A DNA stretch of 64,000 bases from Thermomicrobiales bacterium (GTDB taxonomy: Bacteria > Chloroflexota > Chloroflexia > Thermomicrobiales > UBA6265), in contig JAMLHR010000003.1 in the NCBI GenBank assembly GCA_023957015.1, positions 22,555-86,554 of the forward strand, given 5' to 3'. The first letter of the stretch is position 1. The number at the start of each line of letters is the position of its first letter. The notes under the pieces were generated by a model. It was not told the DNA's origin. It saw nothing but the letters and a program-made list of their open reading frames with translations, and did not search any database. Positions 41,692 through 60,177 of the stretch are shown here, in pieces. The position numbers and the translations under genes are program-made.

Positions 41692-41751
41692 ATGAGTCTC
41701 TATCCTTTAGCCATAAATAGCGCCGTTGCACCGCGTTCGTATACTAGGTGA

Positions 41752-42693: not shown

Positions 42694-42876
42694 CAATCGT
42701 GGTGCATTGCGGCATGCGTTCACAGCCCCGAAAAAATAAGCAAATGCTTAAGAGAAAAATTCCACGGAAATTCGGTCAAAATAACCCCCCAAATTTCCGC
42801 ATCAGATCCGCATAATTAAAGAAGTCGCCCACCGAAAAAATAAAGCTGGACGCGTATTCACAGGCGATACGCGGAG

Positions 42877-42905
42877 TTGACGCCCCCGTACGGATACTCT
42901 ATGCT
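42877..42905 (+). promoter_or_regulatory. candidate sigma-70 promoter upstream of the giant surface-protein gene
   Basis: TTGACG (42877-42882), a 17-nt spacer, then TATGCT (42900-42905). It implies a ~400-nt leader. Confidence 0.4.
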
Positions 42906-43313
42906 ACGCGCACGGTATGTTGACAGCGCCGTACGGTCAATGCGGTCGGTACACCCGCATGGCACCCGAGGCACCCTGGGAACGCATACGCGTTAAGGCG
43001 ACGTTGACCAGGTTTACCTGTCAATGCACGCAGAGGATTCGGTTGATGTTCACGCATCAGCCGGTTTGTATAGCCAGCTTTTGTGCTGGCCCGTTTTGGT
43101 GTGGTGTGGCGTTCAGATAGCTACTGGTACGCGCGCGTAACACCTTATGGTCACCAGAAAGGCTGGGGTTGCGATGCTTTGGCACGCGGAGAAAGAGGTT
43201 ATGGCTAGGAGAGAACACAGTCGGTATCTCGTCACCAATAAGACGCAGACAATTGCATCTGGTCAGGTGTTTCCCTTCGTGACGCCAGCGGATGCAACAT
43301 GGGGGAAGCAGAG

Positions 43314-46300
43314 ATGAGGTTCGCTAACTCAACAAGGTTCAGGGTGTTCCTGGCCGTATTCATGATGATCTCGATGGTGCAATCGTCATTTGCACAATCG
43401 ATGCAGGCATCTCGTCCATTGACGGGTGGCGTCACTATCATCCTGCGGGATGAGAAGGGTGCGAACCTCGCCGATGGCTGTTTCACATTCAAGCTGACAG
43501 GTGTTGATGATTTCAGCGCCTGTGATGAAGACGGCGACGGCCAGATCGATCTCCGCAACTTGCCACCTGGCAAGCTGAAGGTCACACAGACCTCCGGCCC
43601 CACGGGCTTTGCGTTGGCCGATCCATTGACGGTCACCATCCAGACCAACAGAATCTTGCCCGTTCCGGTAGCGGTATCGGCGGTCGTGGCAGAGAGGACA
43701 TCTCTCGTCCAGGGACCGCTTTTGGCGTTCCAGGATGCAGGTGTCGATGTTGTCACTGGCTCACCCGAGCTGGAACCAACGGAGACACCGTCTGAGACGC
43801 CAACCGAGGCTCCGGCCATCGTGCCCGCGTCTCTTCAGACGGAATCGACTGATGAGGCGACAGAGGTGCCGACGGAACCGGCAACGGAACCAGCCACAGA
43901 GGAAGTGACGGAAACCGCCACTGAGGTCGTTACCGAAGTTGCAACGGAACCGGCCACAGAAGCTCCGACGCTGGCAGCAACCGAAGCTGCCACGGAAGCT
44001 CCGACGCAGGTAGCAACAGAAGCTGCCACGGAAGCTCCGACGCAGGTTGCAACGGAAGCTCCAACCCAGGTTGCAACCGAAGCTCCATCGGTTCAGACCA
44101 CGAACGTGACGCTGACCATTGATGCCGGTGGAACTGACCTGACCGGTGCGCCGTGGAAGCTGTATGCCGATCTCGCCTCCATGGCGGCGCTGACCGAGTA
44201 CGCCTCGGGCACCGTTGGTGCTGGCAACACGATCGTCATTCCGAACGTGATTGACGGCAACTACACGCTGGTGATCTCACCAGCCGGTATGGATCCGATC
44301 ACCAACACCTTCACCGTAGTGGGTGATGGCAATGGCAACCAGACCATTCCGCTGACCGCCACCGTTTCCTCACCCAAGATTCAGAGTCTCATAACGCCAC
44401 TTGATACTGGCGCGATGGAGTTTGGCGTAACCTGCGCCCCTCTGAACTCAGAAGGTCGCATCCAGTCCAGGATCTTTGTCCTCAATGTTCCTGATGGTAA
44501 GGATGCTTCTCCAGCGCCGAGTTTCACCTATCAGGTGTTTGATCGCTTCGGCAATGGCGGCCCCATCACGCCCGGCACCATGACCTGGAATGCTTCCACC
44601 AATCGGTGGGAATCCGAGGTCTTTGATGTTGTGGCACGCCCGCTCACCTACGTTGCGACGGCGGCCGGTGTTCAGAACACCCTGCATGGTGCATGTGCCG
44701 TCTTCAATCCGATCATTCCGGCAATTGACACCATGGCCAAGGATGAGCAGGGCAAGGACCTGCCAGACGGAAGCCAGGTTGTCGCCGGCACCAAGTTCCG
44801 CGATACCGCTCAGTTCAAGGGGCTGGATGGAATCCCGGGCGCGCTTCAGGCGCTCGAGGGGCAGACGGTTGTCTACAACCTCTATCGCAATGCGGCTTGT
44901 ACCGGTACGCCTGAGAAGACCTTCTCGGTGATTGTCGGCGCGAACGGTGTCATTCCGGATTCCCCGCTCTTCGATTCGGCCACGGTTGGCGATGGCACCT
45001 ACGATTGGCAGGTGACATTCACCCCAACCGGTAGTGCCGCCACGAACTTCCAGGGTGCCAAATCCGAATGCCAGAGTGAGACGGTGATCGTTGGTAAGAC
45101 GACGCCGACGTTGACAACGGCGATGCGGCGCGTGACGGGCACCAACACCAGCACAGGGATTAATCAAAACGGCAATGTCACCATCGGTGCCACCGTTTTC
45201 GACCGATCCACGCTCACGAACGCCTCCACAACGGTGACTGGTTCGCTGACCTATACGTTGATGATGGGCACCTGTGCTCAGAACACCGTCGTTCTGGGGC
45301 CGACAACGTTGCAGATCACCAATGGTGTGCTGCCGGAGTCTCCCCAGTTCACGCCAGCCGCAGTTGGGACGTATCACTGGATCGTCACCTATAGCGGCGA
45401 TAATCTGAACAGCGACGCCGAGAGCAAGTGTGGTGCCGAGACGTTCAATGTGATCAAGGCCAAGCCTTCGATTACGACCGAGGTGATGAAGGAAGGCAGC
45501 AGCACGCCAATCACTGGTAAGTCTGTTGACCTGAACACCAAGGTGTATGACACCGCCACGGTTTCTGGCCTGTACAAGCCAGCGACTGGTGACTACACCG
45601 GTACGGTGACCTACAAGCTCTATGCCAATGCCAACTGCACGGGAACTCCGCAAGAGTTCACGGTGACGATCAACCCAGACGGCACCGTGCCGAATTCGCC
45701 ATCGGTCGAGATGACCGCTCGCGGTACCTACAACTGGGTGGCTACCTACAATGGCAATGAGTTCAACGATACGGTCAGCGGTAACTGCGGTGACGAGAAG
45801 TTCACCGTTGAAGGCAAGACGCTTGGTATAACCACCATACCGCAGTACAAACCAGAGGGAAGTCAGAACTTCCAGGATATGACCAACAACCAGACGATCA
45901 ATGCGCCGGCGACGGTGCGTGATACGGCTGTGTTCACCGGTCTCGACCCCGCTGACCCCAAGCCAACGGGTACGGTCACATATCGGCTGTATGCGAATGA
46001 CACCTGCCAGGGAACAGCGCTGTTTACCCAGAGTGTCACTGTCGCCGCCGATGGCACGATTCCTCCGGCACCGACGAACGGTGTGACGCCAGCGCTTGGT
46101 ATCGGTCGCTATAACTGGAAGGCGACCTATAACGGCGATGGGAACTACGGAACCGCGACGCATGATTGTCTGACCGAGCAGTTCTTCGTCAGCGCAGCGG
46201 GCGACGGTGAAGGTTATATCCAGACCCAGGTCTATCGCGCCGATAACAACAATGCCATTGCCGATGGCGGCACCATTCCGATGGGCCGTAGCGCCCGCGA

Positions 46301-49300
46301 TACCGCCACCTTCTTCGGGAGCATTGCCCAGAACAATGATCCCAACAAGGTTGCATTCGATGGAACGGTGACCTACAAGCTCTTCAATACCCAGTCGTGT
46401 GGCTCCACACCGATCAAGACCTGGACGTATAACGTCAAGGCTGGCGATGCCGTCCCGGCGATACCATCGGCCGAAGCCTATCGCTTCACTGCGGCTGGCG
46501 AATACGATTTCCAGGTGACCTACGAGTGGACTGCCGGTGGTAAGAACCATACGGTGAGTAGCCAGTGTCTCACCGAGACCGTCATCGTCAGCAAGGTCAC
46601 GCCATCGGCGACAACCACCCAGATGAAGTCCGGTGATCCGTTGGCGAACATGACGCAGAACATCCGCGTCCTGGGACCGGTCACCGTCGGCGACACGATG
46701 CTGAACAACACGGTCACGTGGCCAGGCAATGTTGACCTGACTGGTATCCAACCGAACGGCACACTCGTCTACACGCTGTACAAGCACAGCAGCACCTCCA
46801 ATAGTTGTGGCACCAGTGCCACTGTGGTTCAAAGCTTCTCGGTTAATGTTGTTGATGGTGTGTTCCAGCCAAGTGGCACCACCACCATTGCAGCTGATGC
46901 CTACGGTGTCTACAACTGGACTGTGAAGTTCGAACCAACGGGCGATTCTGCGACGAGGTACGAAGGTTGGACAACCACCTGCGGCGACGAGCGCTTCTTT
47001 GTTGAGGCGCAGCCAACGCTGACCACCGAGATGTACAAGAACACCGCGAACTCCGATGCTGGTGCGGTGATCCTGCCCGATAATGAGACCATTGATGTTG
47101 GTATGTTTGTTCGTGACACGGGTACGCTCAAGGACTTCGTGCCGGGCTCTGCTAACGGTAATGTTGTCTTCAAGCTCTATCGCAGTGCCGATTGCACCGG
47201 TACAGTCGTGTTCGAAGATAGCGTCTCTGTTACGAACGGTGTGCTGGCCAGCGGTACGGACTGGTACGAGGTCACAATCAGCGGTGACTACAGTTGGAGC
47301 GCAACCTTCACCCGTAGCGGTAGCGGTAACAACGCCCAACTGACACGCAGTGCGAACAGCGACTGCGCCACCGAGACCTTCAAGGTGAATCCGCCAAGTG
47401 GCAATCCGTCCATGGTGACGATCATGCGTGACACGAGTAACAACGTGATCCCGCACAAGTCGTTCGTCTCTGGCACGGTATCGGTGACCGACCAGGCCGT
47501 GTTCTCAAACATGCCAGGCGATGCCTCCGGTAAGGTGACCTACAAGCTCTACCCGAACGCCACCTGTGATGGCAACCCAGTTCACACCAGTGAGAAAAAC
47601 GTTGTCAATGCGCAGGCACCGATCTCTGATCCGTATCTGTTGCCACTGGTTCAGGCACCTGAGGGTCGGATCTACAGTTGGACGGTGGAGTTTGTCAGCA
47701 CAGATGGCCAGATAAAGGTGGATAGCCCGTGCGGTGCTGAACAGTTCCGCAAGTACGATGCCATTCAGTACGGTGCCGAGACAGTCTGTGTCTACAACAC
47801 CGCAACGGGGAACACCTCCTTCACCATCACGCTGCACCCGCAGCCGGTGCCAGGTGGCGTCTACGCCAATCCGACGGTGGTGGTCAACCCCTTCAACCTG
47901 GATCTTTCGGCGGCAACGCAGGAGACCGTGGTCAATGAGTGGGTGATTACCTTCAATGACAAGCCATGGCGGAAGATCACTGGGCGTGCCGATTGGAACA
48001 ACGGTGATCCGAACTCTTGGGCAACCTTCGAAGTTGGCTGCAATAGCCAGCCGATGAAGCCCGAGATCTCGACCAAGATGTTCCAGGTTGGCGTCGTCGA
48101 CGAGATGAAGAACGACACGACGGTTGAGATCGGTACGGTCGTCTATGACACCACGCAGGTCACCCCGGGTACCAGCACGGTCATCATGGACGGTACGCTC
48201 ACCTACGAGCTGTTCCACAACAGTGGTTCGGATCAGCAGTGCACGCTTGCCAATCGTGTCTTCTTCGAAGAGCACAAGCTGGACAAGACTCCGTGGGACA
48301 AGATGCCGAACTCCGGCAACTTCACGACGGACAAAGCCGGTACCTACTACTGGGTGGTCACATTCAACCCGCCAGCTGGTCAGTACCCGGATAACGCGAC
48401 AGCTGTGAGCAAGTGTGGTGAGGAGTACTTCAAGGTCAAGCCGAATCTGCCGGAACTCGTGTTGGAGAAGACGGCTGTTCAGGGTGAGATCGTTGCTGGT
48501 CAGAACGCGGTCTACGAGATCAAGGTCACCAACAAGGCCGATGGCCCAGCCATGGGTGTCGTGGTCACGGATACGTTGCCGGATACCACGAACTACACGT
48601 GGAAGGTGACGAAGAACGGCGCTGAGCTCACATTGACCGATCTCGGTAATGGCAAGGTCTCGTTCGCTATCGGTGATCTCCCGAATAAGGACGACTCGAT
48701 ATCGGTGACCGTGACCGGCACGCCGAAGCTGGGCAGCGACTACAACCCGACACCGCAGGAATGCGAGAAGGGTGTCAAGCTGACGAACAAGGCCGTCGCT
48801 GTTGATGACAAGAAGAACGAGTCCAATGAGGATTCGGCTGACATCACAGTGAAGTGCAAGCCGCAGTTGCCGAAGATCACGGCGCAGGGAATCGCCTGTG
48901 TCAATGGTCAGACGACGGGCAAGAACGAGTTCACGGTTACTCCAGGTGTTGGTGTGACGATCACGCATGTGACCTACACCGAAGTTGGCAATGCTGCGAA
49001 CACGGGTGCAGCGACGCCAGGAGCAGGGAACACCTACTCGATACCGGCGAGTGCCGGGAACGGGACGTTCACGCTGACGGTGCGCTACACGATCAATGCG
49101 AACTACATCGTGCCGACGAATCCGGCGCCGATTGCGCATCCGGATGGTGGCTACCAGGTCACCGATACGATGAAGCTCGAGCCGTGTGTTGACTCTGATG
49201 TGCCGACGGTGAAGGTGACGAAGGCGGTTTGTACGTCTGACGTGCTGACACCGCACAAGCTGACGCTGAACGCAACGACCGGATGGACGGTTGTGAGCGT

Positions 49301-50660
49301 GACGCCGAACGCGATTGGGAACCCGGCAGCTGGCTTTGGTGACTTCACCTGGCCGGGTGGCGAAGCGGTGACGGTTGTTGTCACCTACGAGTTGAACGTC
49401 GGACAGCAATGGCCAGCGAACTTCCCGCCGACGGGACCGGATGCGAATGGTGGTACATGGAAGAAGGTTGACAACAACCCGAACCAGGTGACGTACACGA
49501 TCACGTTCGAGAAGGAAACGTGTGAGCCAGAGATCAAGGTCGTCAAGAAGGCGGACAAGGCTGAGTACAAGCCGGGTGACACCATCACCTACACGATCAC
49601 GATCACGAACACGGGTGAGGGAAGCGCGAAGGATCAGACGGTCCTGGACACCCTGCCGATGAACGTGTTCTGGAATGGCGGTGCGGTTGTTGTTACCCCG
49701 AACGGTACGACGATCAGTGGACCGACCACGAGTACAGATCCGATTTCGGGTGCACAAACACTCAAGTGGACTGGCTTGACCATTCCGTACAAGAGTGAGG
49801 TCACGATCTCCTTCGGTGCCGTGATCCCGGTTGATGGCTCCGTCTGTGGTGAAATCACCAATACCGTCAGGGTCACCCCGGTTGATAAGGGCGACAAGGA
49901 AACAGTATTGGTACGTTGCTCCTCGATGGTCGACGCCAAGAAGACCGCGGATCTGAGCGAAGTGACCGATGCTGGCACGGTGATCAACTACACCGTGACG
50001 GTTGAGAACACTGGTAACACGGCGCTGAAGAACCTGGTGGTGACCGACCTGATTAGCGGTACCGCGAGTCCGGTGAACGTGACGCCTGGTGCTGCGACCA
50101 GCAGCCTGGCACCACTCGGATTCAATCAGGATCCGTTCCTGGGCACGATCACGACCCTGAAGGTTGATGAGACTGTCACCATCAAGTACAGCTACGTGGT
50201 GAGCCAGGCGGACATCGACAAGGGTGGACCGATTGAGAACTGCGTGATCGTCAGTAACGACACGACGGATAAGGACAACTGCGCGAAGACCAAGGTGAAG
50301 AAGAATCCGAAGGTCGAGGCGAGTAAGGTTGCCGATCTGAGTGAAGTCTCAGAGGACGGCGCAGTGATCAACTACACGATCACGGTGAAGAACACGGGTA
50401 ACGTGACGTTGACCAAGCTGCCTGTGACCGATGAGCTGACAGGAGTAGCGAGTCCGGCAAACGTGGTCTGGGGTACTGCGAGCAGCAGCCTGGCACCAGC
50501 GGGCTTCAATGAGGATCCGTTCCTCGGCACGATCTCGACCCTGAAGGTCGGTGAAGTTGTCACGATCAAGGCGAGCTACGTCGTGAGCCAGGCGGACATC
50601 GACGCAGGTGGACCGATTGAGAACTGTGTGATTGTCGAGCACGACACGACGGAAGGGTGA
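43314..50660 (+). CDS. giant surface protein, N-terminal segment
   Basis: RBS gggggaagcagagATG gives MRFANSTRFRVFLAVFMMISMVQSSFAQS. A prealbumin-like motif follows (DGQIDLRNLPPGKLKVTQTSGPTGFAL), then the linker repeats ATEAPTQV. There are nine modules ending C-x-x-E-x-F-x-V. DUF11-like segments include YEIKVTNKADGPAMGVVVTDTLP and YTITITNTGEGSAKDQTVLDTLP. Confidence 0.9.
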   Translation: MRFANSTRFRVFLAVFMMISMVQSSFAQSMQASRPLTGGVTIILRDEKGANLADGCFTFKLTGVDDFSACDEDGDGQIDLRNLPPGKLKVTQTSGPTGFALADPLTVTIQTNRILPVPVAVSAVVAERTSLVQGPLLAFQDAGVDVVTGSPELEPTETPSETPTEAPAIVPASLQTESTDEATEVPTEPATEPATEEVTETATEVVTEVATEPATEAPTLAATEAATEAPTQVATEAATEAPTQVATEAPTQVATEAPSVQTTNVTLTIDAGGTDLTGAPWKLYADLASMAALTEYASGTVGAGNTIVIPNVIDGNYTLVISPAGMDPITNTFTVVGDGNGNQTIPLTATVSSPKIQSLITPLDTGAMEFGVTCAPLNSEGRIQSRIFVLNVPDGKDASPAPSFTYQVFDRFGNGGPITPGTMTWNASTNRWESEVFDVVARPLTYVATAAGVQNTLHGACAVFNPIIPAIDTMAKDEQGKDLPDGSQVVAGTKFRDTAQFKGLDGIPGALQALEGQTVVYNLYRNAACTGTPEKTFSVIVGANGVIPDSPLFDSATVGDGTYDWQVTFTPTGSAATNFQGAKSECQSETVIVGKTTPTLTTAMRRVTGTNTSTGINQNGNVTIGATVFDRSTLTNASTTVTGSLTYTLMMGTCAQNTVVLGPTTLQITNGVLPESPQFTPAAVGTYHWIVTYSGDNLNSDAESKCGAETFNVIKAKPSITTEVMKEGSSTPITGKSVDLNTKVYDTATVSGLYKPATGDYTGTVTYKLYANANCTGTPQEFTVTINPDGTVPNSPSVEMTARGTYNWVATYNGNEFNDTVSGNCGDEKFTVEGKTLGITTIPQYKPEGSQNFQDMTNNQTINAPATVRDTAVFTGLDPADPKPTGTVTYRLYANDTCQGTALFTQSVTVAADGTIPPAPTNGVTPALGIGRYNWKATYNGDGNYGTATHDCLTEQFFVSAAGDGEGYIQTQVYRADNNNAIADGGTIPMGRSARDTATFFGSIAQNNDPNKVAFDGTVTYKLFNTQSCGSTPIKTWTYNVKAGDAVPAIPSAEAYRFTAAGEYDFQVTYEWTAGGKNHTVSSQCLTETVIVSKVTPSATTTQMKSGDPLANMTQNIRVLGPVTVGDTMLNNTVTWPGNVDLTGIQPNGTLVYTLYKHSSTSNSCGTSATVVQSFSVNVVDGVFQPSGTTTIAADAYGVYNWTVKFEPTGDSATRYEGWTTTCGDERFFVEAQPTLTTEMYKNTANSDAGAVILPDNETIDVGMFVRDTGTLKDFVPGSANGNVVFKLYRSADCTGTVVFEDSVSVTNGVLASGTDWYEVTISGDYSWSATFTRSGSGNNAQLTRSANSDCATETFKVNPPSGNPSMVTIMRDTSNNVIPHKSFVSGTVSVTDQAVFSNMPGDASGKVTYKLYPNATCDGNPVHTSEKNVVNAQAPISDPYLLPLVQAPEGRIYSWTVEFVSTDGQIKVDSPCGAEQFRKYDAIQYGAETVCVYNTATGNTSFTITLHPQPVPGGVYANPTVVVNPFNLDLSAATQETVVNEWVITFNDKPWRKITGRADWNNGDPNSWATFEVGCNSQPMKPEISTKMFQVGVVDEMKNDTTVEIGTVVYDTTQVTPGTSTVIMDGTLTYELFHNSGSDQQCTLANRVFFEEHKLDKTPWDKMPNSGNFTTDKAGTYYWVVTFNPPAGQYPDNATAVSKCGEEYFKVKPNLPELVLEKTAVQGEIVAGQNAVYEIKVTNKADGPAMGVVVTDTLPDTTNYTWKVTKNGAELTLTDLGNGKVSFAIGDLPNKDDSISVTVTGTPKLGSDYNPTPQECEKGVKLTNKAVAVDDKKNESNEDSADITVKCKPQLPKITAQGIACVNGQTTGKNEFTVTPGVGVTITHVTYTEVGNAANTGAATPGAGNTYSIPASAGNGTFTLTVRYTINANYIVPTNPAPIAHPDGGYQVTDTMKLEPCVDSDVPTVKVTKAVCTSDVLTPHKLTLNATTGWTVVSVTPNAIGNPAAGFGDFTWPGGEAVTVVVTYELNVGQQWPANFPPTGPDANGGTWKKVDNNPNQVTYTITFEKETCEPEIKVVKKADKAEYKPGDTITYTITITNTGEGSAKDQTVLDTLPMNVFWNGGAVVVTPNGTTISGPTTSTDPISGAQTLKWTGLTIPYKSEVTISFGAVIPVDGSVCGEITNTVRVTPVDKGDKETVLVRCSSMVDAKKTADLSEVTDAGTVINYTVTVENTGNTALKNLVVTDLISGTASPVNVTPGAATSSLAPLGFNQDPFLGTITTLKVDETVTIKYSYVVSQADIDKGGPIENCVIVSNDTTDKDNCAKTKVKKNPKVEASKVADLSEVSEDGAVINYTITVKNTGNVTLTKLPVTDELTGVASPANVVWGTASSSLAPAGFNEDPFLGTISTLKVGEVVTIKASYVVSQADIDAGGPIENCVIVEHDTTEG
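43846..44092 (+). repeat. low-complexity Thr/Glu/Ala/Pro/Val linker encoded by short imperfect tandem repeats
   Basis: Iterations of gcaac(a/g)gaagct(gccacggaagct)ccgacgcaggt encode (ATEA)ATEAPTQV. Confidence 0.85.
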
Positions 50661-52970
50661 CGACTGCGCGAGCGGAAGACAGACCAAAGGGTGAAGAAGG
50701 ATCCGGAAGGTTGAGTGCGAAGAAGGTCATGCTGATCTGAAGGAAGTGAGCATGGCAAGGCACCACGATCAACTACACGATCACGGTGAAGAACGACCGA
50801 CCTGGGATTAGACGTGACGTTGACCACGCTGGCAGTGAATGACGAGTACCTGACGGGAGCTGCGAGTCCGGAGAAACGAACGTGGTATGGGGCACCAGAT
50901 GCCAAAGGTGAGTGACCGGGGTCAGAACGCGGCGACGATCGCGAGTCTTGTGACCGAATTCGCCGACCGCGAGTGTTGAGATTCCGGCGAGCTACGTCGT
51001 AGCCAGGCGGACATTGATGCTGGTGGACCGATTGAGAACTGTGTGATTGTCGAGCACGACACGACGAAGGGTGACGACTGCGCGAAGACCAAGGTGAAGA
51101 AGGATCCGCTAAGGTTGAAGGCGAAGTAAGGTTGCTGATCTGAGTGAAGTGAGCATGGCAGGCGGCACCACGATCAACTACACGATTACGGTGAAGAACA
51201 CGGGTAACGTGACGTTGACCACGCTGGCGGTGAACGACGAGCCTGACGGGAGTAGCGAGTCCGGCAAACGTGGTATGGGGGGCACTCATGCCAGCAGGTG
51301 TGACCGTGGTGAACGGCGTGCCGACGATCGCGAGTCTTGCACCGAATGCGAGTGTTGAGATTCCGGCGGAGCTACGTGGTGAGCCAGGCGGACATCGATG
51401 CTGGTGGACCGATCGAGAACTGTGTCGATTGTCGAGCACGACACGACGAAGGGTGACGACTGCGCGAAGACCAAGGTGAAGAAGGATCCGGAAGGTTGAG
51501 GCGGAAGTAAGGCTGCTGATCTGGAGTGAAGTGAGCATGGCAGGCACCACGATCAACTACACGATCACGGTGAAGAACACGGGTAACGTGACGTTGACCA
51601 CGCTGGCGGTGAATGACGAGCTGACAGGAGCTAGCGAGTCCGGCGAACGTGGTATGGGGCACCATGCCAGCAGGTGTGACCGTGGTGAACGGCGTACCGA
51701 CGATCGCGAGTCTTGCACCGAATGCGAGTGTTGAGATTCCGGCGAGCTACGTCGTGAGCCAGGCGGACATTGATGCTGGTGGACCGATCGAGAACTGTGT
51801 GATTGTCGAGCACGACACGACGAAGGGTGACGACTGCGCGAAGACCAAGGTGAAGAAGGATCCGAAGGTTGAGGCGAAGAAGGTTGCTGATCTGAGTGAA
51901 GTGAGCATGGCAGGCACCACGATCAACTACACGATCACGGTGAAGAACACGGGTAACGTGACGTTGACCACGCTGGCGGTGAACGACGAGCTGACAGGAG
52001 TAGCGAGTCCGGCGAACGTGGTATGGGGCACCATGCCAGCGGGTGTGACCGTGGTGAACGGCGTACCGACGATCGCGAGTCTTGCACCGAATGCGAGTGT
52101 TGAGATTCCGGCGAGCTACGTGGTGAGCCAGGCGGACATCGATGCCGGTGGACCGATTGAGAACTGTGTGATTGTCGAGCACGACACGACGAAGGGTGAC
52201 GACTGCGCGAAGACCAAGGTGAAGAAGGATCCGAAGGTTGAGGCGAGTAAGGTTGCTGATCTGAGTGAAGTGAGCATGGCAGGCACCACGATCAACTACA
52301 CGATCACGGTGAAGAACACGGGTAACGTGACGTTGACCACGCTGGCGGTGAATGACGAGCTGACAGGAGTAGCGAGTCCGGCGAACGTGGTATGGGGCAC
52401 CATGCCAGCGGGTGTGACCGTGGTGAACGGCGTACCGACGATCGCGAGTCTTGCACCGACCGCGAGTGTTGAGATTCCGGCGAGCTACGTGGTGAGCCAG
52501 GCGGACATCGATGCCGGTGGACCGATCGAGAACTGTGTGATTGTCGAGCACGACACGACGAAGGGTGACGACTGCGCGAAGACCAAGGTGAAGAAGGATC
52601 CGAAGGTTGAGGCGAAGAAGGTTGCTGATCTGAGTGAAGTGAGCATGGCAGGCACCACGATCAACTACACGATCACGGTGAAGAACACGGGTAACGTGAC
52701 GTTGACCACGCTGGCGGTGAATGACGAGCTGACGGGAGTTGCGAGTCCGGCGAACGTGGTATGGGGCACCATGCCAGCGGGTGTGACCGTGGTGAACGGC
52801 GTACCGACGATCGCGAGTCTTGCGCCGACCGCGAGTGTTGAGATTCCGGCGAGCTACGTCGTGAGCCAGGCGGACATCGATGCAGGTGGACCGATTGAGA
52901 ACTGTGTGATTGTCGAGCACGACACGACGGAAGAAGATGATTGTGCCAAGACTGACGTGAAGCAGAATCG
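49931..52970 (+). repeat. tandem repeat family A: 8 units of ~369 nt (123-aa DUF11/TIGR01451-like modules), last six nearly identical at DNA level
   Basis: The marker gtgagcatgg recurs at 50746, 51149, 51531, 51901, 52270 and 52639. Spacings are 403, 382, 370, 369 and 369 nt. Two more diverged units precede. Confidence 0.9.
50661..51648 (+). pseudogene. frame-broken, insertion-rich copies of the family-A repeat
   Basis: The sequence aligns to the clean unit but with many extra bases. One example is gcgagcggaagacagaccaaagggtgaag versus the clean gcgaagaccaaggtgaag. It has multiple stops in every frame. Confidence 0.85.
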
Positions 52971-53178
52971 CGAGATCCTCCTGGTGAAGGATGGTGTACT
53001 TGATCTGGGCGAGAATGAGATTTCCAACCCAGGCGATATCATCACCTACACCTTCAAGGTGACCAATATCGGTAACACGACGCTGAAGGGTATGACGATC
53101 ACTGATCCGCTCCCAGGTCTGACATGGGTCGATGGCAACACCATTGATTCCCTGGCCCCGGCGAGAGTGCGACCTTGA
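51649..53178 (+). CDS. in-frame continuation of the surface protein (family-A repeats, then first family-B repeat); no independent start expected
   Basis: 509-aa ORF made of repeated ...VADLSEVSMAGTTINYTITVKNTGNVTLTTLAVNDELTGVASPANVVWGTMPAGV... units. Confidence 0.8.
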   Translation: MVWGTMPAGVTVVNGVPTIASLAPNASVEIPASYVVSQADIDAGGPIENCVIVEHDTTKGDDCAKTKVKKDPKVEAKKVADLSEVSMAGTTINYTITVKNTGNVTLTTLAVNDELTGVASPANVVWGTMPAGVTVVNGVPTIASLAPNASVEIPASYVVSQADIDAGGPIENCVIVEHDTTKGDDCAKTKVKKDPKVEASKVADLSEVSMAGTTINYTITVKNTGNVTLTTLAVNDELTGVASPANVVWGTMPAGVTVVNGVPTIASLAPTASVEIPASYVVSQADIDAGGPIENCVIVEHDTTKGDDCAKTKVKKDPKVEAKKVADLSEVSMAGTTINYTITVKNTGNVTLTTLAVNDELTGVASPANVVWGTMPAGVTVVNGVPTIASLAPTASVEIPASYVVSQADIDAGGPIENCVIVEHDTTEEDDCAKTDVKQNREILLVKDGVLDLGENEISNPGDIITYTFKVTNIGNTTLKGMTITDPLPGLTWVDGNTIDSLAPARVRP

Positions 53179-54372
53179 TGGCGACCTACCCGATCACGCA
53201 GGAAGACATCGATGCTGGTACACGCCACAACATGGCGACGGTGAAGGACACCCCGCCGGATGGCGAGGAGCCAGTGAAGGATAAGGATCCGGAAGATGTG
53301 CCGATCCCACGCGAGCGCGACATTGTCCTGGTGAAGGATGGTGTGCTTGATCTCGGTACGGACAAGATCGCCAATCCTGGTGATGTGATTACCTACAGCT
53401 TCACGGTGACCAACGTTGGGAACATGACGCTCAAGGGCATGACGATCACCGATCCGCTCCCAGGTCTGACATGGGTCGATGGCAACACCATTGATTCCCT
53501 GGCCCCAGGCGAGAGTGCGACCTTGACCGCGACCTACGCGATCACGCAGGACGACATCGATGCCGGTACGCGCGAAAACCTGGCGGTTGTGGAAGACACC
53601 CCGCCGGATGGCGAGGAGCCGGTGAAGGATAAGGATCCGGAAGAAGTGCCGATTCCGCAGGAGCGCGAGATCGATCTGGTGAAGACCGGTGAGCTCGACC
53701 TGGGTGAGAATGGCGTATCCGATCCTGGTGACGTAATCACCTATGAGTTCACGGTGACGAATGTCGGTAACACGACACTGAAGGGCATGACGATCACTGA
53801 TCCGCTCCCAGGTCTGACTTGGGTGGCTGGAAACACGATCGACGAGCTGGCACCAGGCGAAAGCGCAGTGCTCACCGCGACCTACGGAATTACGCAGGAA
53901 GATATCGATGCTGCCACTCGTCACAACCTGGCGACGGTAACGGATACCCCGCCGGATGGCGAGGAGCCGGTGAAGGATGAGGATCCTGAGGACGTGCCGA
54001 TTCCGCAGAAGCGTGGTGTGAGTCTCGATAAGGTGGGCGTGCTCGATCTGGGTGCGAATGCATCTGCCAATCCTGGCGATGTGACCACCTACGAGTTCAC
54101 GGTGACCAACACCGGTAACGCGACACTCAAGGGTCTGACGATCACCGATCCGCTGCCAGGTCTGACCTGGGTCGCGGGTAACACGATCGAGTCTCTGGCC
54201 CCAGGTGAGAGCGTCACGCTCCAGGCGACGCGCATCATCACCCAGGCAGATATTGACGCCTGTCAGGTTGTCAACATCGCGCTGGTGAGAGACACGCCAC
54301 CTGCGGGTGAGGAGCCGGTGGAAGATCCGGGCGACGCACTGGTGAAGATCCCGTGCAAGCCGGTGACACCGC
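52981..54372 (+). repeat. tandem repeat family B: 4 units of 348 nt (116 aa)
   Basis: Unit starts are ctggtgaag / ctcgataag at 52981, 53328, 53676 and 54024. Spacings are 347, 348 and 348 nt; the 347 reflects the missing base at ~53159. Confidence 0.9.
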
Positions 54373-54518
54373 CAACGGTTGAGGTCCTGCCGAACACTGG
54401 TTCGGGTGCCGGGTCTGGTAACGGACTTGGTGCGGCCACCATGGTCTGGGCGTCTGCCGCCCTCCTGATCATGGCTCTGGGAGTCGGTGCCATCGGCACC
54501 CGCCGCCAGCAGCCGTAA
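53175..54518 (+). CDS. C-terminal segment of the surface protein with LPXTG-type sorting signal
   Basis: Contains family-B repeats (NPGDVITYxFTVTNxGNxTLKGMTITDPLPGLTWV). It ends VEVLPNTGSGAGSGNGLGAATMVWASAALLIMALGVGAIGTRRQQP*, i.e. LPNTG, a hydrophobic helix and a basic tail. Confidence 0.85.
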   Translation: MMATYPITQEDIDAGTRHNMATVKDTPPDGEEPVKDKDPEDVPIPRERDIVLVKDGVLDLGTDKIANPGDVITYSFTVTNVGNMTLKGMTITDPLPGLTWVDGNTIDSLAPGESATLTATYAITQDDIDAGTRENLAVVEDTPPDGEEPVKDKDPEEVPIPQEREIDLVKTGELDLGENGVSDPGDVITYEFTVTNVGNTTLKGMTITDPLPGLTWVAGNTIDELAPGESAVLTATYGITQEDIDAATRHNLATVTDTPPDGEEPVKDEDPEDVPIPQKRGVSLDKVGVLDLGANASANPGDVTTYEFTVTNTGNATLKGLTITDPLPGLTWVAGNTIESLAPGESVTLQATRIITQADIDACQVVNIALVRDTPPAGEEPVEDPGDALVKIPCKPVTPPTVEVLPNTGSGAGSGNGLGAATMVWASAALLIMALGVGAIGTRRQQP

Positions 54519-54584: not shown

Positions 54585-54595
54585 GGACGAAAGAA

Positions 54596-55996
54596 GTCCC
54601 GGGAGCGATCGCCCCGGACCCTTAACTTTGGGGTCAGACGGGCTGGCGGCCTCTTCATGATCCATGGCCAAGGAGTCTGTGATGCCCGGATCCTACCACG
54701 TTCTCGACCCAGTTTGTTACTACCTGGCCACCATGCTCCGTCACGCTACCCACCAACGCAGGACTGCGCTGCGCTCCCCCCGAGCTGGTTCTGGGGCCGG
54801 AGCATGGTCTCACGCATGCCCTCGTCATGGGCATGGGTGACTGGACCGCGACCTACCGGGTGTTCTCCGGCCCCACGGTTGCGATCAGCGCGTTGCAGCG
54901 TCAGGTTATCGCGGGTATGCACGTCATGATCCGGTGGTGGTGGTGGTCGATGCCAGCTCCCACGGACCGGGCGGAAGATGCCGGAGGTGGGGACGATCCC
55001 CGCGGACACCACCGAAGCCTGGCATCCATCATGCCCAGGACGAGGTACACCACCCACCGCGGAAGGAGACAGTCGTGATCCGCTGGTGTTTGCACCAGCT
55101 CCATCACCGACCCGCGGCCATGGGCAGTCAGACGGAATGGCAGGCCGCGTGGAGGGTCTGGATCATCCGGGAGGCGATGGACGCGGTGAACAGGATCGTC
55201 CCCGTGGTGACGGGGGATGGTGCCTATAGTCGGGAACCTACCCGGCACGAGGGATTGCGCGTAAAATCGGGCGCTGTACCATCCCCGATCCGAACGAACC
55301 ACCCCGACGTGCGGAAGGAGACCGCGGTCTCACACCGCCGCAGGGACAGGAGCATTCCGGGTGGAGACATGTCATTCGGGTGCGGGGCAAAGACGTCATC
55401 TACGGATCCAGGTGACCGGTCCCTGGGTGATCAAGAAGAGGACCATCCCCGATGTCATCACGATTGCCGGGATTGGACGTGGGCGTGGATCGTCACGAGA
55501 TCGCGTGACATGATGCAGGTCAATGCCCGCCAATCACACGGATGGGAGCTGCCCTATCCGGTGGAACAGCTGGCGCTCTGGGTGGGCAACGGTGGGAAGT
55601 GGGGTAATGCATCGGGAACGGGAGGGACCAGCAACAGTGGTCGGCCGAGGTGCAGTAAGACGCAGTGGGTGGTCTGGGTGGGTCCTCATCCTGACGGGAG
55701 TCGTGTCCGCCGTCCATTCGGCATTCCCGGGGTACCGCCAGCGTCGGACCCGCGTGACCGACGGATGCAACTCCGGGAAGAGCGGAGCACCACCCCGGCA
55801 GGTAACACCCCATTGTGCTTCGGAACCCCACGGAAAAATACCGCCTTTGAAGGTGCTGTTGGCGGTCGCGGATGCCATCTAACGCCAACGATACGCAGAC
55901 TCGCACAATCCAGACATGTCCCACGATGACGACGACCAGAACCCCCCTCAGAGTGCAAAGAGTCCCGGGAGCGATCGCTCCCTGGACTCTCTTTGC
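54596..55996 (+). mobile_element. IS remnant: multiply frameshifted DDE (IS4/IS701-like, YREK-type) transposase gene between two GCGATCGC-centred palindromes
   Basis: A good start exists (aaggagtctgtgATG at 54682: MPGSYHVLDPVCYYLATMLRHATHQRR). Transposase-like segments are then spread over all three + frames: GDWTATYRVFS, VVVVDAS, IVPVVTGDGAYS, ALYHPRSERTTPTCGRRPRS, QRWEVG and DQQQWSAE. The palindromes are at 54596-54619 and 55955-55996. Confidence 0.55.
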
Positions 55997-56252
55997 TTCG
56001 TCGGTAGTCGCGCCCGTGCACGCTCGGGCAAGGGTGCGGATCTTCGCCCCTCGGTGGCCACCGTCGCCTCAGTCACAGATGCGCGTAGAGCCGTGGCCCC
56101 TGCGCATCGGTACCGAGTGGATCCGTGAAGAGGATGTCCGGAAGGCGTAGCCCCGGACCGATCGGTCGCAGTCCAGAGGGTAGCTGTCCTCCAACTAACC
56201 GCGACCGTGAGTTATCCGGGTTCAGTGGCGAATCTGGGCTCCATCGGCGGAG

Positions 56253-56401
56253 TGAACCCGGACAACTCACAAGCGCGACCTCTTTCGCAGGATTATCGAT
56301 GGTTCGCGCTTGATCGGTCCGGGTCTACATGTCCGACTAGAGCCCTTCAGTGATTTTCTCGGTTCAGATGGGCCCCTGCGGCTCCGCTCGAGATCGCAGG
56401 G
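56253..56401. repeat. intergenic repeat element, copy B (same modules as 40862-40972, different order/spacing)
   Basis: tgaacccggac at 56253-56263; cgcgcttgatcggtccgggtctacatgtccga at 56305-56336; cccctgcggctccgctcgagatcgcaggg at 56373-56401. Confidence 0.85.
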
Positions 56402-56479
56402 CTACGCAGGAGCGAGCCTCCGCCGGGAGATTCTGCCGTAGGCACATTGGATGTGACTGTGATCCACCCGCAGCCGGAT

Positions 56480-57670
56480 CTAGAACATCGACTCGATTAT
56501 CGGTACGACTGGCGGGAAGATCTGCGCCAACGTCGCCATCGCGTCGGTGTGTACTCGTCCCCAACCGCGGATTGGCAACAGGCGGGCATCAATGCCGCTG
56601 AATACCAACGCCGAGAGGCCATGGATCGTGACCTCACCTTGCGGTGTCCCTCCCTCATGCACCAGCAACGTGCCGTCGTGGCCAGTGAATGTGAATGTCC
56701 CGTTGTTCCAGGGTGCCTGGTCATCGGATACCGTCAGGCAGACGGCACCATCTCCCGCGCCAATCCCGGTTAGTCCGGCAACGGTCACGATGCGACCCAT
56801 GGCGGGTCCCCAGCTATCGGCGTCGTTGGTGATGACGTCCATCGATCCCTCATAGGTCGCCCACAGGTGTGGCTCCTCGTTCGGGATCATCGGCATGCGC
56901 ACCGTCTTGATCTGATCAACGTGGCGTGCCAGAAAATCCAGCACATTCAATTCGCCGTTGAAGGTCGACCAATGCACGAGATCAACGACCATCTCCTGCT
57001 TGTCGATATCCATGCGATAGACCATCGCGGCGGTGACGTCGTCGCCCTCATGCACGGTCATCACCCAACTCTTGTTGAATGAGAGCCAGGCATCCTGCTT
57101 GGCGCGCTGGAACAGACTCATGCCATGCACCGTGCGCTGTGTTCCGGCCAGTATCGTTGCCACATCCTCAATGGCGGCGCCGCTGAGTCGATGTTTCACC
57201 GTGCCGCTCTTCTCCGCCGTGAGATACGGCGCAAGTGCGGCCGGATTCACATGAAGCCAGACCGGTGCCTGCCAACCCGCATACCCGAACTTCTCGTAGT
57301 AGGAAGTCTTGAACGGGTAGAGGGTGCTAACGGCTTCGCCCTGTTCATGCATGTCACGAATCGCGCGATGGAGCAACTCGCGGACGTGTCCGCCGCGTCT
57401 GGCCGCTGGCATACTGGCCACACCGCTGATACCACCCATAGGAATTACGGTATTACGTACATTGGTTGTCATCGGCACGATCGCGACTTTCGCGATGGCG
57501 ACATCATCGACATAGCTGAGGAAGACGCGATCGGTGACACGCATTGCCCGGCGTCGCTCTGCCTGTTCGGGCGTTTCGGTGGCGGGTGTTGAAGCAAAGG
57601 CATAACTTCCCAGCAGAATCGCTTCCTCGCTGTTGTTGTCACCGGGCCGGATATCAAAGGGCGTATTCAT
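56480..57670 (-). CDS. Eis-like GNAT acetyltransferase with C-terminal sterol-carrier-like domain
   Basis: 396-aa ORF. The GNAT core is GGISGVASMPAARRGGHVRELLHRAIRDMHEQG...YEKFGYAGW. The length and three-domain layout are typical of the Eis family. Confidence 0.8.
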   Translation of the reverse strand: MNTPFDIRPGDNNSEEAILLGSYAFASTPATETPEQAERRRAMRVTDRVFLSYVDDVAIAKVAIVPMTTNVRNTVIPMGGISGVASMPAARRGGHVRELLHRAIRDMHEQGEAVSTLYPFKTSYYEKFGYAGWQAPVWLHVNPAALAPYLTAEKSGTVKHRLSGAAIEDVATILAGTQRTVHGMSLFQRAKQDAWLSFNKSWVMTVHEGDDVTAAMVYRMDIDKQEMVVDLVHWSTFNGELNVLDFLARHVDQIKTVRMPMIPNEEPHLWATYEGSMDVITNDADSWGPAMGRIVTVAGLTGIGAGDGAVCLTVSDDQAPWNNGTFTFTGHDGTLLVHEGGTPQGEVTIHGLSALVFSGIDARLLPIRGWGRVHTDAMATLAQIFPPVVPIIESMF

Positions 57671-57730
57671 GGTGTTCTCGCAGGTGCGGGCAGAAGAGCC
57701 AAGTCAGATGAAATCCTACCAAACCCTCAC

Positions 57731-57771
57731 GGGAAAAGGAACGACACCCGGTGGCTGGCCGGGCGTCGTTC
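57731..57771 (-). terminator. intrinsic terminator after the Yip1-like gene
   Basis: The minus strand reads GAACGACGCCCGG-ccagcca-CCGGGTGTCGTTC followed by CTTTTCCC. It is a 13-bp stem with one mismatch. Confidence 0.6.
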
Positions 57772-57794
57772 GGAAAGAGGGGAGGGGGAGTGGA

Positions 57795-58343
57795 CTAGAA
57801 AGGAACGTTCAGACTGATATTGAAGATGGCACCGAAGATCGCGAAGGTGATGATGCTACCGATCCAGGCGACCAGCCCTGTGGCAACCGCGCGGCCGGTA
57901 TCCATGTTCAGTGCGACTTTGATCGCGACGATCATGGTCGCCAGTGTCCACAGCCAGAGAACCGAACCGATGATGCCACCGATAAGCCAGATACCGGTCA
58001 CAAACTGGAAGACATTCGGCACCGCGGCGTAGCCGACGATACGCATAACGCGCTCGACCGAGCTGCTGGTATGGGGCGTTGATGTGATGCGGGTGCCAAC
58101 GAAGTAGATAATCGCCGCGCTCAGCACCCAGCCGAGCAGCATCGCCACCACGCCCCCAATCAGGGCGCCGGGCCCTTGCAGCAACCAACCGAGTCCGGAG
58201 GCGATCGCTACCGTGGCCACCACAATTCCGGCTTCCGGTGTGGCGGAGGGATCGCGTGTGATCTCCTCATAGGTGCGAGTGTTGAACGTCATCACGTCTT
58301 TGGCGCGTTGGACGATTCTATCGAGCGAGATGTTGGTTTCCAT
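57795..58343 (-). CDS. Yip1-domain integral membrane protein
   Basis: Start chosen at ccagggaggatttcATG (METNISLDRIVQRAKDVMTFNTRTYEEI). About 5 TM helices. The N-terminal pattern is typical of the Yip1/DUF1282 family. Confidence 0.7.
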   Translation of the reverse strand: METNISLDRIVQRAKDVMTFNTRTYEEITRDPSATPEAGIVVATVAIASGLGWLLQGPGALIGGVVAMLLGWVLSAAIIYFVGTRITSTPHTSSSVERVMRIVGYAAVPNVFQFVTGIWLIGGIIGSVLWLWTLATMIVAIKVALNMDTGRAVATGLVAWIGSIITFAIFGAIFNISLNVPF

Positions 58344-58484
58344 GAAATCCTCCCTGGAACGATGTGCTGGAATGTTCTCGTTCATCCTGCGGTGTTTGGC
58401 AGAAATCCCGAACTCCTGCCATTAGTGTAGGAGCCCGGGATTGGGGGTGTAGTATGGGTAACCGGTAATTCTAACGGTGGGGTA

Positions 58485-58904
58485 TTACCCCTCCGATGGT
58501 CGTGGTTTCTGCCAGAGAAGCGTTGCCAGCACGGCGATGGTGGCGGTGAGTGCCACACCCAGGGCGATATGCCAGCCGACGATATCGAGCATGCGCGTGC
58601 GCGTCATATACCCGAGACCTGTCTGGATGAAGGTGAGCACGAAGACCAGCGCGGATATCGACAATACCGCCGCCGATACCACTTTCTGGGAGAAGAGCGT
58701 GTAACTCATCAACATCTGCGCGATAGAGACGAAGACCAGCGTGTTCCCCAGATGCATATGCCCGGTGATCAACCAGGGATCGGTACCGGCGCGGAGGAGA
58801 CCGTTCCCCGCCAGCGCCGCCGTCACCACCATCAGGATGGTGAATAGAACCACAAGCCAGCGGTTAGCGATCAGAAGACCAGGTGTCGGAGAGGGAGTTG
58901 GCAT
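58485..58904 (-). CDS. hypothetical integral membrane protein (4 TM)
   Basis: 139-aa ORF with conserved-looking His residues in its TM helices. No family recognised. Confidence 0.55.
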   Translation of the reverse strand: MPTPSPTPGLLIANRWLVVLFTILMVVTAALAGNGLLRAGTDPWLITGHMHLGNTLVFVSIAQMLMSYTLFSQKVVSAAVLSISALVFVLTFIQTGLGYMTRTRMLDIVGWHIALGVALTATIAVLATLLWQKPRPSEG

Positions 58905-59019
58905 TAAGCGTAATCCTGTGCGTTCATCGAATCAGCGCGAACCGCTCTCCCGATTCTACGTGCCAATCCTGACGATATTGTGAATGGATGCACAATCTTC
59001 AAATAGGGCATCCGTCCAC

Positions 59020-60177
59020 CTATCCGAACAATTCTGCTTCCACTTCGGTGACGCCTTCGGCGAAGCGATGGAGTCGGAATGGCGAGAGATCGAAGCGAGG
59101 ATCGCCTCCCTCTGTGGTCAGATTCGCCAATATCTCGCCGCTCATGGGGCCGATACCGAATCCGTGACCGCTGAATCCGGCACCAACCACCAGACCGGGA
59201 TGACTTGGTACGGCATCGAACACCGGGATCAGATCCAGTGTGTCGTCGATCAAGCCGCCCCAGACCCGTTCGATTCGTAGATCGGCCAATCGCGGCAGCA
59301 CTGCAATTGCGTTACGGGTCATGTTTTCTTTCTGGCGGACGGTCATGCCAACATTTGCCGGCGTGTGCTGCCCTTCGTTCCACGGCACACTGGCACCGAT
59401 GAAGCGGACACCACCACCGACTGTTTGCCGGGCGGCAAACGAACCGGTAGCGACACCAAGTACGGGACTGAGTGTGAAGTCATCTGTCGGTACGGTTTGG
59501 GCGACCGGGCAGTGAACGATATTCAGTGGCAGGTACAATCCCAGCGATTCCAGCAGTCTGGGTGTGTAGATCCCCGCAGCCACAACGACGACATCGGCGG
59601 TATAGGAACCCTTGGCAGTAGTGACGCCGGTGACGCGGTCGCCATGCGTGGTCAGACCAAGCACTTCTTCACCGCTGATGATGGCGGCCCCAAGGCGACG
59701 GGCCGCGTCGTCGTAGGCTCTGACCACCTTGTGATTGTCCGCGTGGCCATCGGTGGGGCAGAAGCTGGCACCCACCACCGTCTCGTTCACTTCCGGCGCG
59801 ATCTGTCGGACAGCGTCGGCGGTATCGAGATACTCCATCGGTATACCGGCGGCGTTCCCATCGGCGACGACTTGTCGAATCATCGCTTCATGGTCGGGAA
59901 CCAAAGCGAGACGGAGATTGCCATTCTGGACGTAGTCCAGTTCGGCCTCGAGTTCCTCTCCCAGGTGCGCCCAGCGCTTGATCGCTTCGCGCGCGATGGG
60001 GAGCTCTGTCGCGTCACGGCCACTCTGGCGCACACCGGCCAGCGTCCAACCGCTGGCCATCGCGTGGATCGACTCGCGCTCGAAGAGCGTGACCTTGACG
60101 CCTCGTTTACTGAGCTCATAGGCAGTAGCGCAACCGGTGATGCCGCCGCCAATTACGATCACCTCAGATGTGGACAT
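59020..60177 (-). CDS. FAD-dependent oxidoreductase (DAO family: sarcosine/glycine/D-amino-acid/opine oxidase-like)
   Basis: Start chosen at cagggagcagatcaATG (MSTSEVIVIGGGITGCATAYELSKRGVKVTLFE, a Rossmann GxGxxG motif). ~385 aa. Confidence 0.85.
   Translation of the reverse strand: MSTSEVIVIGGGITGCATAYELSKRGVKVTLFERESIHAMASGWTLAGVRQSGRDATELPIAREAIKRWAHLGEELEAELDYVQNGNLRLALVPDHEAMIRQVVADGNAAGIPMEYLDTADAVRQIAPEVNETVVGASFCPTDGHADNHKVVRAYDDAARRLGAAIISGEEVLGLTTHGDRVTGVTTAKGSYTADVVVVAAGIYTPRLLESLGLYLPLNIVHCPVAQTVPTDDFTLSPVLGVATGSFAARQTVGGGVRFIGASVPWNEGQHTPANVGMTVRQKENMTRNAIAVLPRLADLRIERVWGGLIDDTLDLIPVFDAVPSHPGLVVGAGFSGHGFGIGPMSGEILANLTTEGGDPRFDLSPFRLHRFAEGVTEVEAELFG

Follow-up and report, generated by a model that had tools for sequence, protein, structure and literature searches.

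The window analysed here, a 64,000-nucleotide stretch of a Thermomicrobiales contig, carries a giant gene for a predicted surface protein that is deposited in pieces, and the question it raises is whether the gene is broken in the organism or in its assembly. The gene and its C-terminal end lie as follows:

43344 to 54518, + strand: giant secreted surface-protein gene, ~3,700 aa if repaired (open reading frames, Pfam, TIGR01451 and intact orthologues).
54387 to 54518, + strand: putative C-terminal sorting signal, made up of LPNTG (54387-54401), the hydrophobic stretch GSGAGSGNGLGAATMVWASAALLIMALGVGAIGT and an RRQQP tail (motif recognised by eye).

The gene start is the one annotated for the deposited protein P0019. 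The window contains open reading frames at 43299-50660, 51649-53178, and 53175-54518; the first ends at 50660, and the coding sequence is taken up again at 51649 in a different frame. From the N terminus on, the predicted protein comprises a segment resembling a signal peptide, a TEAPTQVA linker, numerous Ig-like modules, and DUF11/DUF7507 (CLIPPER) repeats, followed by the terminal LPNTG. Pfam searches match PF24346 at 114 to 274 bits (cut-off 27) and PF01345 at 72 to 85 bits (cut-off 24.6), as well as SpaA, and TIGR01451 matches at 87.6 bits (cut-off 24). An NCBIfam search at E<=0.01 returned no LPXTG anchor model of the TIGR01167 type. The nearest relative beyond the sister metagenome-assembled genomes (MAGs) shows 32% identity. 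Calling a DUF11/DUF7507 protein an adhesin, as the first-pass annotation did, is a guess.

The interruption falls within a tandem array, and a smaller one follows downstream:

49970 to 50745, + strand: u-2 and u-1, divergent in-frame copies of the 369-nt unit, 72% and 78% identical to the clean unit.
50746 to 52929, + strand: six "VSMAGTT"-type 369-nt units (marker positions, repeat finding, Pfam, sister comparison), starting at 50746 (u0), 51149 (u1), 51531 (u2), 51901 (u3), 52270 (u4) and 52639 (u5, partial).
50651 to 51631, + strand: noisy patch with a net +1 frame shift, decaying toward 51631 (alignment to the clean unit repeated in tandem).
51632 to 52929, + strand: clean stretch of the array, comprising 3.5 units of 97-100% mutual identity (unit alignment).
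52979 to 54211, + strand: second, older tandem array with a period of 348 nt, 3.5 copies, 79% matches and DUF7507 modules (repeat finding, ORF, Pfam).
53159/53160, + strand: 1-bp deletion (missing A, CCCC-GGCGAG) in the first 348-nt unit, a second frameshift that restores the original frame (ORFs, sisters).

Each 369-nt unit corresponds to a single 123-aa DUF7507/DUF11 module, and Tandem Repeats Finder reports a period of 369 nt for an array spanning 50190-52929. The marker GTGAGCATGG, with 7 matches in the whole window against 0.22 expected, stands at each of the six unit starts, and its successive spacings of 403, 382, 370, 369, and 369 nt reproduce exactly the unit lengths given by the first-pass annotation. 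That annotation placed the noisy copies between near-perfect ones, which holds for the downstream side (u2 to u5, 97-100%); the upstream units are clean but divergent (72-78% to the clean unit), apart from the last 95 nt of the u-2/u-1 stretch, from 50651 on, which are already noisy. Near-identity to the clean units begins in the alignment at about 50571, and the clean units differ from one another mostly at third codon positions. The 348-nt array is clean except for its 1-bp deletion, which is absent from the earlier list and breaks the gene a second time.

The noise was measured in an alignment of 50571-52269 with tandem repetitions of the clean unit. In the 981-nt patch, from the first indel at 50651 to the last at 51631, there are 37 substitutions and 34 indel events, of which 31 are insertions (68 bases) and 3 are deletions (4 bases). 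Inserted bases make up ~7% locally, the excess of insertions over deletions has a binomial p of 8e-7, and the net gain of 64 bases amounts to a +1 frame shift, in agreement with the ORF frames. Counted per 100 bp from 50600, the indel events number 3, 5, 6, 6, 1, 4, 3, 1, 2, 2, 1, and 0. Both the insertion bias confined to a few units and the gradual decay toward the clean copies, as first described, are thus borne out. All three examples quoted at that time were found, namely, an extra G at 50651, GCGGAAGAC with AG inserted at 50672 and 50688, and GGC at 51161, the last being three extra bases, not four. Nine of the 16 single-base insertions equal the adjoining base. Some of the multi-base insertions are near-duplications of adjacent bases, and others merge unit variants in series: CACCGAAT is followed by CGCCGACC at 50960, and GCGAAG and GCGAGT are merged into GCGAAGT at 51124 and 51504.

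This noise shapes the public record. The fragments it produces are found exactly among the proteins of the source MAG (locus tags M9950_), as MCO5214829.1 (P0019; 2438 aa, with the terminus ...HDTTEG) and as MCO5214833.1; P0021 (446 aa) likewise equals a noise-truncated product. It had been pointed out that the insertions, if real, would truncate the protein at 50660 and cost it its anchor; the deposited 2438-aa protein does end at 50660, parted from the LPNTG signal.

Taken literally, the deposited sequence thus reads as a recent pseudogenisation, with dozens of small insertions in three units and a protein that ends at 50660 with no anchor. Strains often lose or vary their surface proteins, and there are genuine structural differences between these MAGs, including a 24-bp repeat difference and a merB islet. 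The comparison with the sister MAGs speaks against such a loss, as the gene is intact in both GCA_023957065.1 (97.7% DNA identity to the window; 3096 aa) and GCA_023957185.1 (95.4%; 3110 aa). These two agree with the window as far as 50650 and from there on lack the inserted bases, and at 53159/53160 both read CTCCAGGTGAG, in frame. Each carries one unit, so that they confirm the junction, the sequence of u0 and u1 being beyond their reach. A 40-mer taken from the patch had no exact match in the GTDB species-representative genomes, an uninformative result since these do not include the source MAG, and a clean-unit 30-mer had none in JGI metagenome contigs, leaving no further independent assembly.

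The balance of indels and substitutions is also unlike a natural spectrum. Between the window and L001 (GCA_023957065.1) or L004, the segment 33344-50650 shows no indels save for the in-frame 24-bp repeat difference, and the segments 10872-17585 and 20192-31964 show almost none alongside hundreds of substitutions. The indel-to-substitution ratio is therefore ~1:1 in the patch (34 versus 37, the latter mostly at third positions) versus essentially 0 to hundreds over ~45 kb elsewhere. In genuine frameshifted pseudogenes and phase-variable adhesins the indels are few or even single, they lie as a rule in homopolymer or short-repeat tracts, and substitutions follow with time.

Beneath the indels, the coding signal persists. 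When only the indels are deleted, the noisy span has zero stop codons, and the resulting protein is 100% identical to the clean unit in u1 and ~93% identical in u0. Of its 30 substitutions, 21 fall at codon position 3 (18 synonymous, 12 not), compared with 17 of 21 differences among the clean units (13 synonymous, 8 not). The stops and the even spread of substitutions over codon positions by which a pseudogene would be recognised are both missing from the indel-free patch.

A second garbled patch, immediately downstream of the gene, weighs further on the choice:

54585 to 56076, + strand: garbled IS701-like element (core ~54621-55957) with ~100 nt of flank (alignment to two independent copies).

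This patch lacks ~250-300 bases (~16-17%), which are distributed over small deletions that number ~48 in a global alignment and ~110 in a local one, including multi-base deletions of up to 34 nt; its flanks are nearly identical to those of the sister, with a few substitutions only. In a three-way alignment of IS copies, 241 gap columns set the window apart from the other two, 8 set the sister apart, and none sets L002 apart; with odd insertions included, the sister has 22 indel columns and L002 has 10. The IS ends, CTTAACTTTGGCA and TGCCAAACTTAAG, are inverted repeats, and a perfect 36-nt palindrome that occurs twice in the sister is degraded in the window. The intact copy in L002 encodes a 472-aa transposase that matches NF049999 (E=3e-44, positions 15-399 of 412) at 151 bits against a cut-off of 170 bits; the longest ORF of the window's patch gave no family match. 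The sister copy carries a few indels itself. We rejected the notion that the sister holds the noisy copy and the window the sound one, since the L002 copy matches that of the sister in length and has an intact transposase ORF, and the flanking palindromes of the sister are perfect. The contig of the sister GCA_023957185.1 terminates at the left end of this IS. An Rfam search of the window found a SAM riboswitch only, far from the array, and structured RNA explains neither patch.

Pseudogenisation would have to account for this equally unnatural patch on the neighbouring IS, for an error gradient that is one-sided and limited to the least anchorable copies, and for an open frame once the indels are removed; we consider it highly improbable. 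A still more exotic possibility is that the indels are real and stem from a local indel-prone process that hits only repeated DNA (interior units and the IS), inactivating the surface protein and sparing unique DNA. It would be a bacterial counterpart of repeat-targeted mutagenesis, and we regard it as extremely far-fetched. Two known mechanisms of variation were considered and rejected: hypermutation of the diversity-generating retroelement type, as the changes are scattered indels and not adenine-specific substitutions, and slipped-strand phase variation, as no one simple tract changes length.

Instead, as far as assembled sequences can tell, the segment 50651-51631 appears to be an unpolished low-accuracy consensus left in the MAG at a near-identical 369-nt array that accurate reads would have failed to assemble or correct, and not biology (probability roughly 0.9). 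The first-pass annotation had favoured an artefact over pseudogenisation, and the intact sisters, the indel spectrum, the open frame after indel removal, and the second patch on the IS all support that choice. Its further attribution of these bases to raw long reads in particular is an inference. The patch begins ~80 nt inside the near-identical array, and another hard-to-place sequence, the IS, is affected as well.

The history that we take to be the most likely is the following. Accurate short-read contigs may have been broken at the array and at the downstream IS, and the two gaps may then have been bridged by long-read-derived sequence. Polishing with short reads would have repaired this sequence wherever reads could be placed, leaving uncorrected the interior repeat copies farthest from a usable anchor, because reads from the repeats would align to the cleaner copies. 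Such a failure with distance from the anchor would produce both the abrupt start of the noise ~80 nt into non-unique sequence and the gradient of residual errors toward the corrected copies. Part of the insertion excess could go back to a consensus step in which alternative unit variants were strung together in series. From its right-hand end, the array is clean for 1.3 kb, a distance beyond the length of a read or an insert, and the polishing account therefore has to assume repeated rounds or multi-mapping reads. The array is biased toward insertions and the IS, conversely, toward deletions, and no single simple error model explains both patches.

The merged unit variants and near-duplications among the multi-base insertions also suggest an artefact that would involve no long reads, in which short-read gap closing or local reassembly over a strain mixture, or over mis-registered copies, stitched alleles together serially. 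At least three closely related strains are present in the same data batch, which would have supplied such a mixture. Short reads alone, however, are normally unable to resolve six near-identical 369-nt units or to span a 1.6-kb IS; many of the single-base insertions match no variant; and what the IS patch shows is scattered deletions rather than merged alleles. We therefore judge this variant of the artefact unlikely.

If the patch is an assembly error, then the broken gene in public databases is an artefact, and the real locus is very probably one intact ~11-kb gene for an LPNTG-tailed surface protein with DUF11/DUF7507 repeats. The main worth of this result lies in quality control, as one ~3,700-aa gene has been split in GenBank/nr into MCO5214829.1 through MCO5214833.1. 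The anchor-less truncated "protein" and the garbled IS are at risk of being misread as pseudogenisation, strain variation, or novel ORFs. The earlier caveat that the true copy number of the array is uncertain was justified: the window has 6 VSMAGTT-type units, each sister MAG has 1, and repeat copy numbers of this kind are unfit for comparative claims unless long accurate reads are at hand. What is left as biology is a DUF11/DUF7507 surface protein, very large but otherwise ordinary, from an uncultured lineage of Thermomicrobiales.

Several known systems offer points of comparison. The strong PF24346, PF01345, and TIGR01451 matches liken the protein to surface proteins of the DUF11/DUF7507 (CLIPPER, TIGR01451) type, and its LPNTG motif, hydrophobic segment, and basic tail liken its end to an LPXTG-type C terminus, from which it differs in leaving the anchor model unmatched. 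Frameshifted pseudogenes and phase-variable adhesins share with this locus a surface-protein gene with frameshifts but not the 34 indels scattered over 1 kb with the coding signal intact. The single unit in each sister versus six in the window, and the sister contig that stops at the IS, resemble the collapse of tandem repeats in short-read assemblies; the single unit may also be a true strain difference, and the copy number of all three genomes is in doubt. Polishing with short reads is documented to fail in repeats, where errors are left behind (the problem addressed by Polypolish, PMC8812927), and the present errors resemble those described there in being found only in repeats (tandem array and IS) within essentially error-free unique surroundings and in being dominated by indels that create false frameshifts and split genes. 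Homopolymer errors in a polished consensus differ in density, which is far higher here, with ~7% of bases inserted in the array and ~16-17% missing in the IS; in this respect, the two patches look closer to gaps filled with a single raw read or a handful of them.

The 369-nt repeat array sits within a single very large gene, which is recovered in the window as three pieces:

43299-50660: first piece (2453 aa), whose stop falls in the noise
51649-53178: second piece, where coding resumes in a frame different from that of the first
53175-54518: third piece, in which the original frame is regained after a 1-bp deletion at 53159/53160

These pieces encode SpaA-like, DUF11 (PF01345) and DUF7507 (PF24346) domains, as well as TIGR01451 repeats, and the translation of the last one ends with LPNTG, then a hydrophobic segment and RRQQP; a search with the curated LPXTG anchor model gave no hit at E<=0.01. 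The product, which the first-pass annotation called an adhesin, is a large repeat-containing surface protein with an LPXTG-type tail, but the adhesin function itself is a guess. In its N-terminal linker, an in-frame 24-nt repeat (44013-44087) encodes TEAPTQVA, with one copy more in the sister MAG GCA_023957065.1 (L001) than in the window; this difference is clean, unlike the noisy patch, and is plausibly a real length polymorphism.

Tandem Repeats Finder places the array of 369-nt period at 50190-52929, and the marker GTGAGCATGG is found at 50746, 51149, 51531, 51901, 52270, and 52639, a spacing that reproduces the previously reported unit lengths of 403, 382, 370, 369, and 369 nt. As had been proposed, multiple alignment of the units attributes the surplus length to scattered extra bases; all three insertions quoted as examples are present, but the third comprises 3 extra bases, not 4. 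When 50571-52269 is aligned to serial copies of the clean unit (51901-52269), 31 insertions totaling 68 bases are counted against 3 deletions totaling 4 bases, along with 37 substitutions; the first indel lies at 50651 and the last at 51631. The claimed insertion bias is strongly nonrandom (binomial p ~8e-7), and the noise does fall off toward the clean copies, with 3, 5, 6, 6, 1, 4, 3, 1, 2, 2, and 1 indel events per 100 bp, then 0. The description of this patch as lying between near-perfect copies holds for the downstream neighbors (97-100% identical) but not for the two upstream units (49970-50745), which are intact yet divergent (72-78% identity). The clean zone extends 1.3 kb into the array.

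A protein search finds a 98% identical protein of 3096 aa in a Thermomicrobiales MAG, whose 90% identity cluster has four members:

M9953_05375: 3096 aa
M9909_13450: 3110 aa
MCO5214829.1: 2438 aa, on a 98,601-bp contig
MCO5214833.1: 446 aa, on the same 98,601-bp contig

The window encodes exactly the last two and thus derives from the MAG in which they were deposited; the noise sits in the public record, and MCO5214829.1 through MCO5214833.1 should be flagged as pieces of one gene. At the DNA level, L001 and a second sister MAG, GCA_023957185.1 (L003), the sources of the 3096- and 3110-aa proteins, are 97.7% and 95.4% identical to the window, respectively; both agree with it base for base to 50650, beyond which their sequence is clean and stays in frame. 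Neither has the deletion at 53159/53160, where one A is missing from the first 348-nt repeat unit, causing the second frameshift of the gene. Since the two flanking bases agree with the next repeat copy and not with the sister MAGs, this deletion suggests a mis-correction from a paralogous copy. Each sister has a single VSMAGTT-type unit, compared to six in the window, which include at least four distinct clean variants. The single units may represent a collapse or a true difference. The earlier caution about copy number was justified. Upstream (5') of the surface-protein gene, L003 carries an IS3-type element (5896-7615, corresponding to window ~40695-40957) with rve integrase and HTH_Tnp_1 ORFs that is absent in the window and in L001.

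Apart from a few patches, the window and L001 differ almost exclusively by substitutions. Over 33344-50650 there are ~300 of these and no indels, save for the one in-frame 24-bp repeat difference; the same near-indel-free pattern is seen at 56100-64000 and, with a handful of exceptions, at 10872-17585 and 20192-31964 in comparison with the upstream part of the same sister contig (L004). The noisy patch has 34 indel events in 981 nt, >100 times the background rate. When the indels alone are removed, with the 4 deleted bases restored and all substitutions kept, 50571-51631 contains zero stop codons, the second unit from 50746 encodes the same protein as the clean unit, and the first has 8 changed residues out of 123, grouped in the noisiest part. 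Third codon positions account for 21 of the 30 substitutions in the noisy span (18 synonymous, 12 not) and for 17 of the 21 differences among clean units (13 synonymous, 8 not). Given this shared pattern, the substitutions look like ordinary variation among functional units, and the indels are a separate layer on top of it.

Several other features were also observed. On the minus strand, a DUF2249 gene (~18905-19145; intact in the sister MAG, 79 aa) is split into two frames by a ~20-bp garbled cluster near 19015-19035 that consists of substitutions, one 2-bp deletion, and one 1-bp insertion; this could be either an error or a real mutation. Pieces of a streptomycin-adenylyltransferase-like gene (PF04439; ~19275-20190, minus strand) occupy three or more reading frames, and its ~0.9-kb segment is wholly absent from the sister MAG; it may represent either genuine gene decay within a variable islet or a further patch of noise. 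L004 (6721-8182) has an extra 1.46 kb relative to window 17585-17708, encoding merB (organomercurial lyase) and a DUF2000 gene, both missing from the window. The adjacent 17708-19275 is unusually divergent (88-93%), and the merB region appears to be a variable islet. A SAM riboswitch (RF00162, 78 bits; 17432-17535, minus strand) lies 5' of a minus-strand operon whose products, according to the sister MAG annotation, are an alpha/beta hydrolase (Abhydrolase_1) and a PLP enzyme of Cys/Met metabolism.

A second garbled patch, an IS701-like element copy (54585-56076), is found 3' of the surface-protein gene. Relative to L001, it lacks ~300 bases, distributed over many small gaps, between near-identical flanks with few substitutions, and the noise passes the right end of the element by ~100 nt. 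A scan of species-representative genomes for a shared 37-mer retrieved a 1619-bp contig (L002) of another Thermomicrobiales MAG (isolate HKST-UBA75), on which the element has inverted-repeat ends and an intact 472-aa ORF similar to IS701-family transposases (E=3e-44, under the curated cut-off); the longest window ORF in the patch has no family match. A three-way alignment gives element lengths of 1594 nt for L002, 1590 nt for L001, and 1339 nt for the window. Here, the window alone departs from the other two copies at 241 gap columns and 78 substitutions. For L001, such lone departures add up to 22 indel columns (8 with a gap, 14 with an insertion), and for L002 to 10 insertions, with no gap column. 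The L001 copy (19420-21000) lacks a long transposase ORF and differs from intact L002 by ~22 indel bases; as the window sides with L002 at several of these sites, the L001 repeat may also hold residual indel errors. Both flanks of the element in L001 (19383-19410 and 21005-21032; window ~54600 and 55961-55988) carry a perfect 36-nt palindrome, AGAGAGTCCCGGGAGCGATCGCTCCCGGGACTCTCT, which is degraded in the window, is missing at the left end of L002, and far exceeds a normal target-site duplication in length. The L003 contig breaks off 121 bp past the gene, where the left end of the element lies. The garbling in the window thus coincides with the array and the element, precisely the two sites at which an assembly from accurate reads would be predicted to break.

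The mutation spectrum, the coding signal preserved beneath the indels, the intact sister genes, and the parallel patch in the element strongly support the first-pass reading of the noise as an assembly artifact in a publicly deposited MAG; its biological interest is low. The same four observations contradict real pseudogenization of the surface-protein gene, which is highly improbable. The accurate contigs are likely to have stopped at the array and the element, which would have been bridged by long-read-derived sequence, and later short-read polishing would have fixed the sites where reads could be placed. The abrupt onset of noise ~80 nt into nonunique sequence fits the distance that reads with an anchor in unique DNA can cover, and the one-sided gradient would fit correction moving in from already clean copies. 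Several of the array insertions consist of two real unit variants in series, such as CACCGAAT followed by CGCCGACC at 50960, or GCGAAG and GCGAGT fused into GCGAAGT at 51124 and 51504, suggesting that the consensus was built across copies that were out of register. An artifact produced by merging alleles from strain or copy mixtures, with no long reads involved, would account for some of the insertions but not for those of single bases, the resolution of six units, or the deletion-riddled element, and we consider it unlikely. The bridging and polishing scheme leaves unexplained how far the clean zone extends into the array (1.3 kb) and why the two patches are biased in opposite directions, the array toward insertions and the element toward multi-base deletions (up to 34 nt). 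Its outcome, errors that persist in repeats past short-read polishing, is a problem already described in the literature (PMC8812927).
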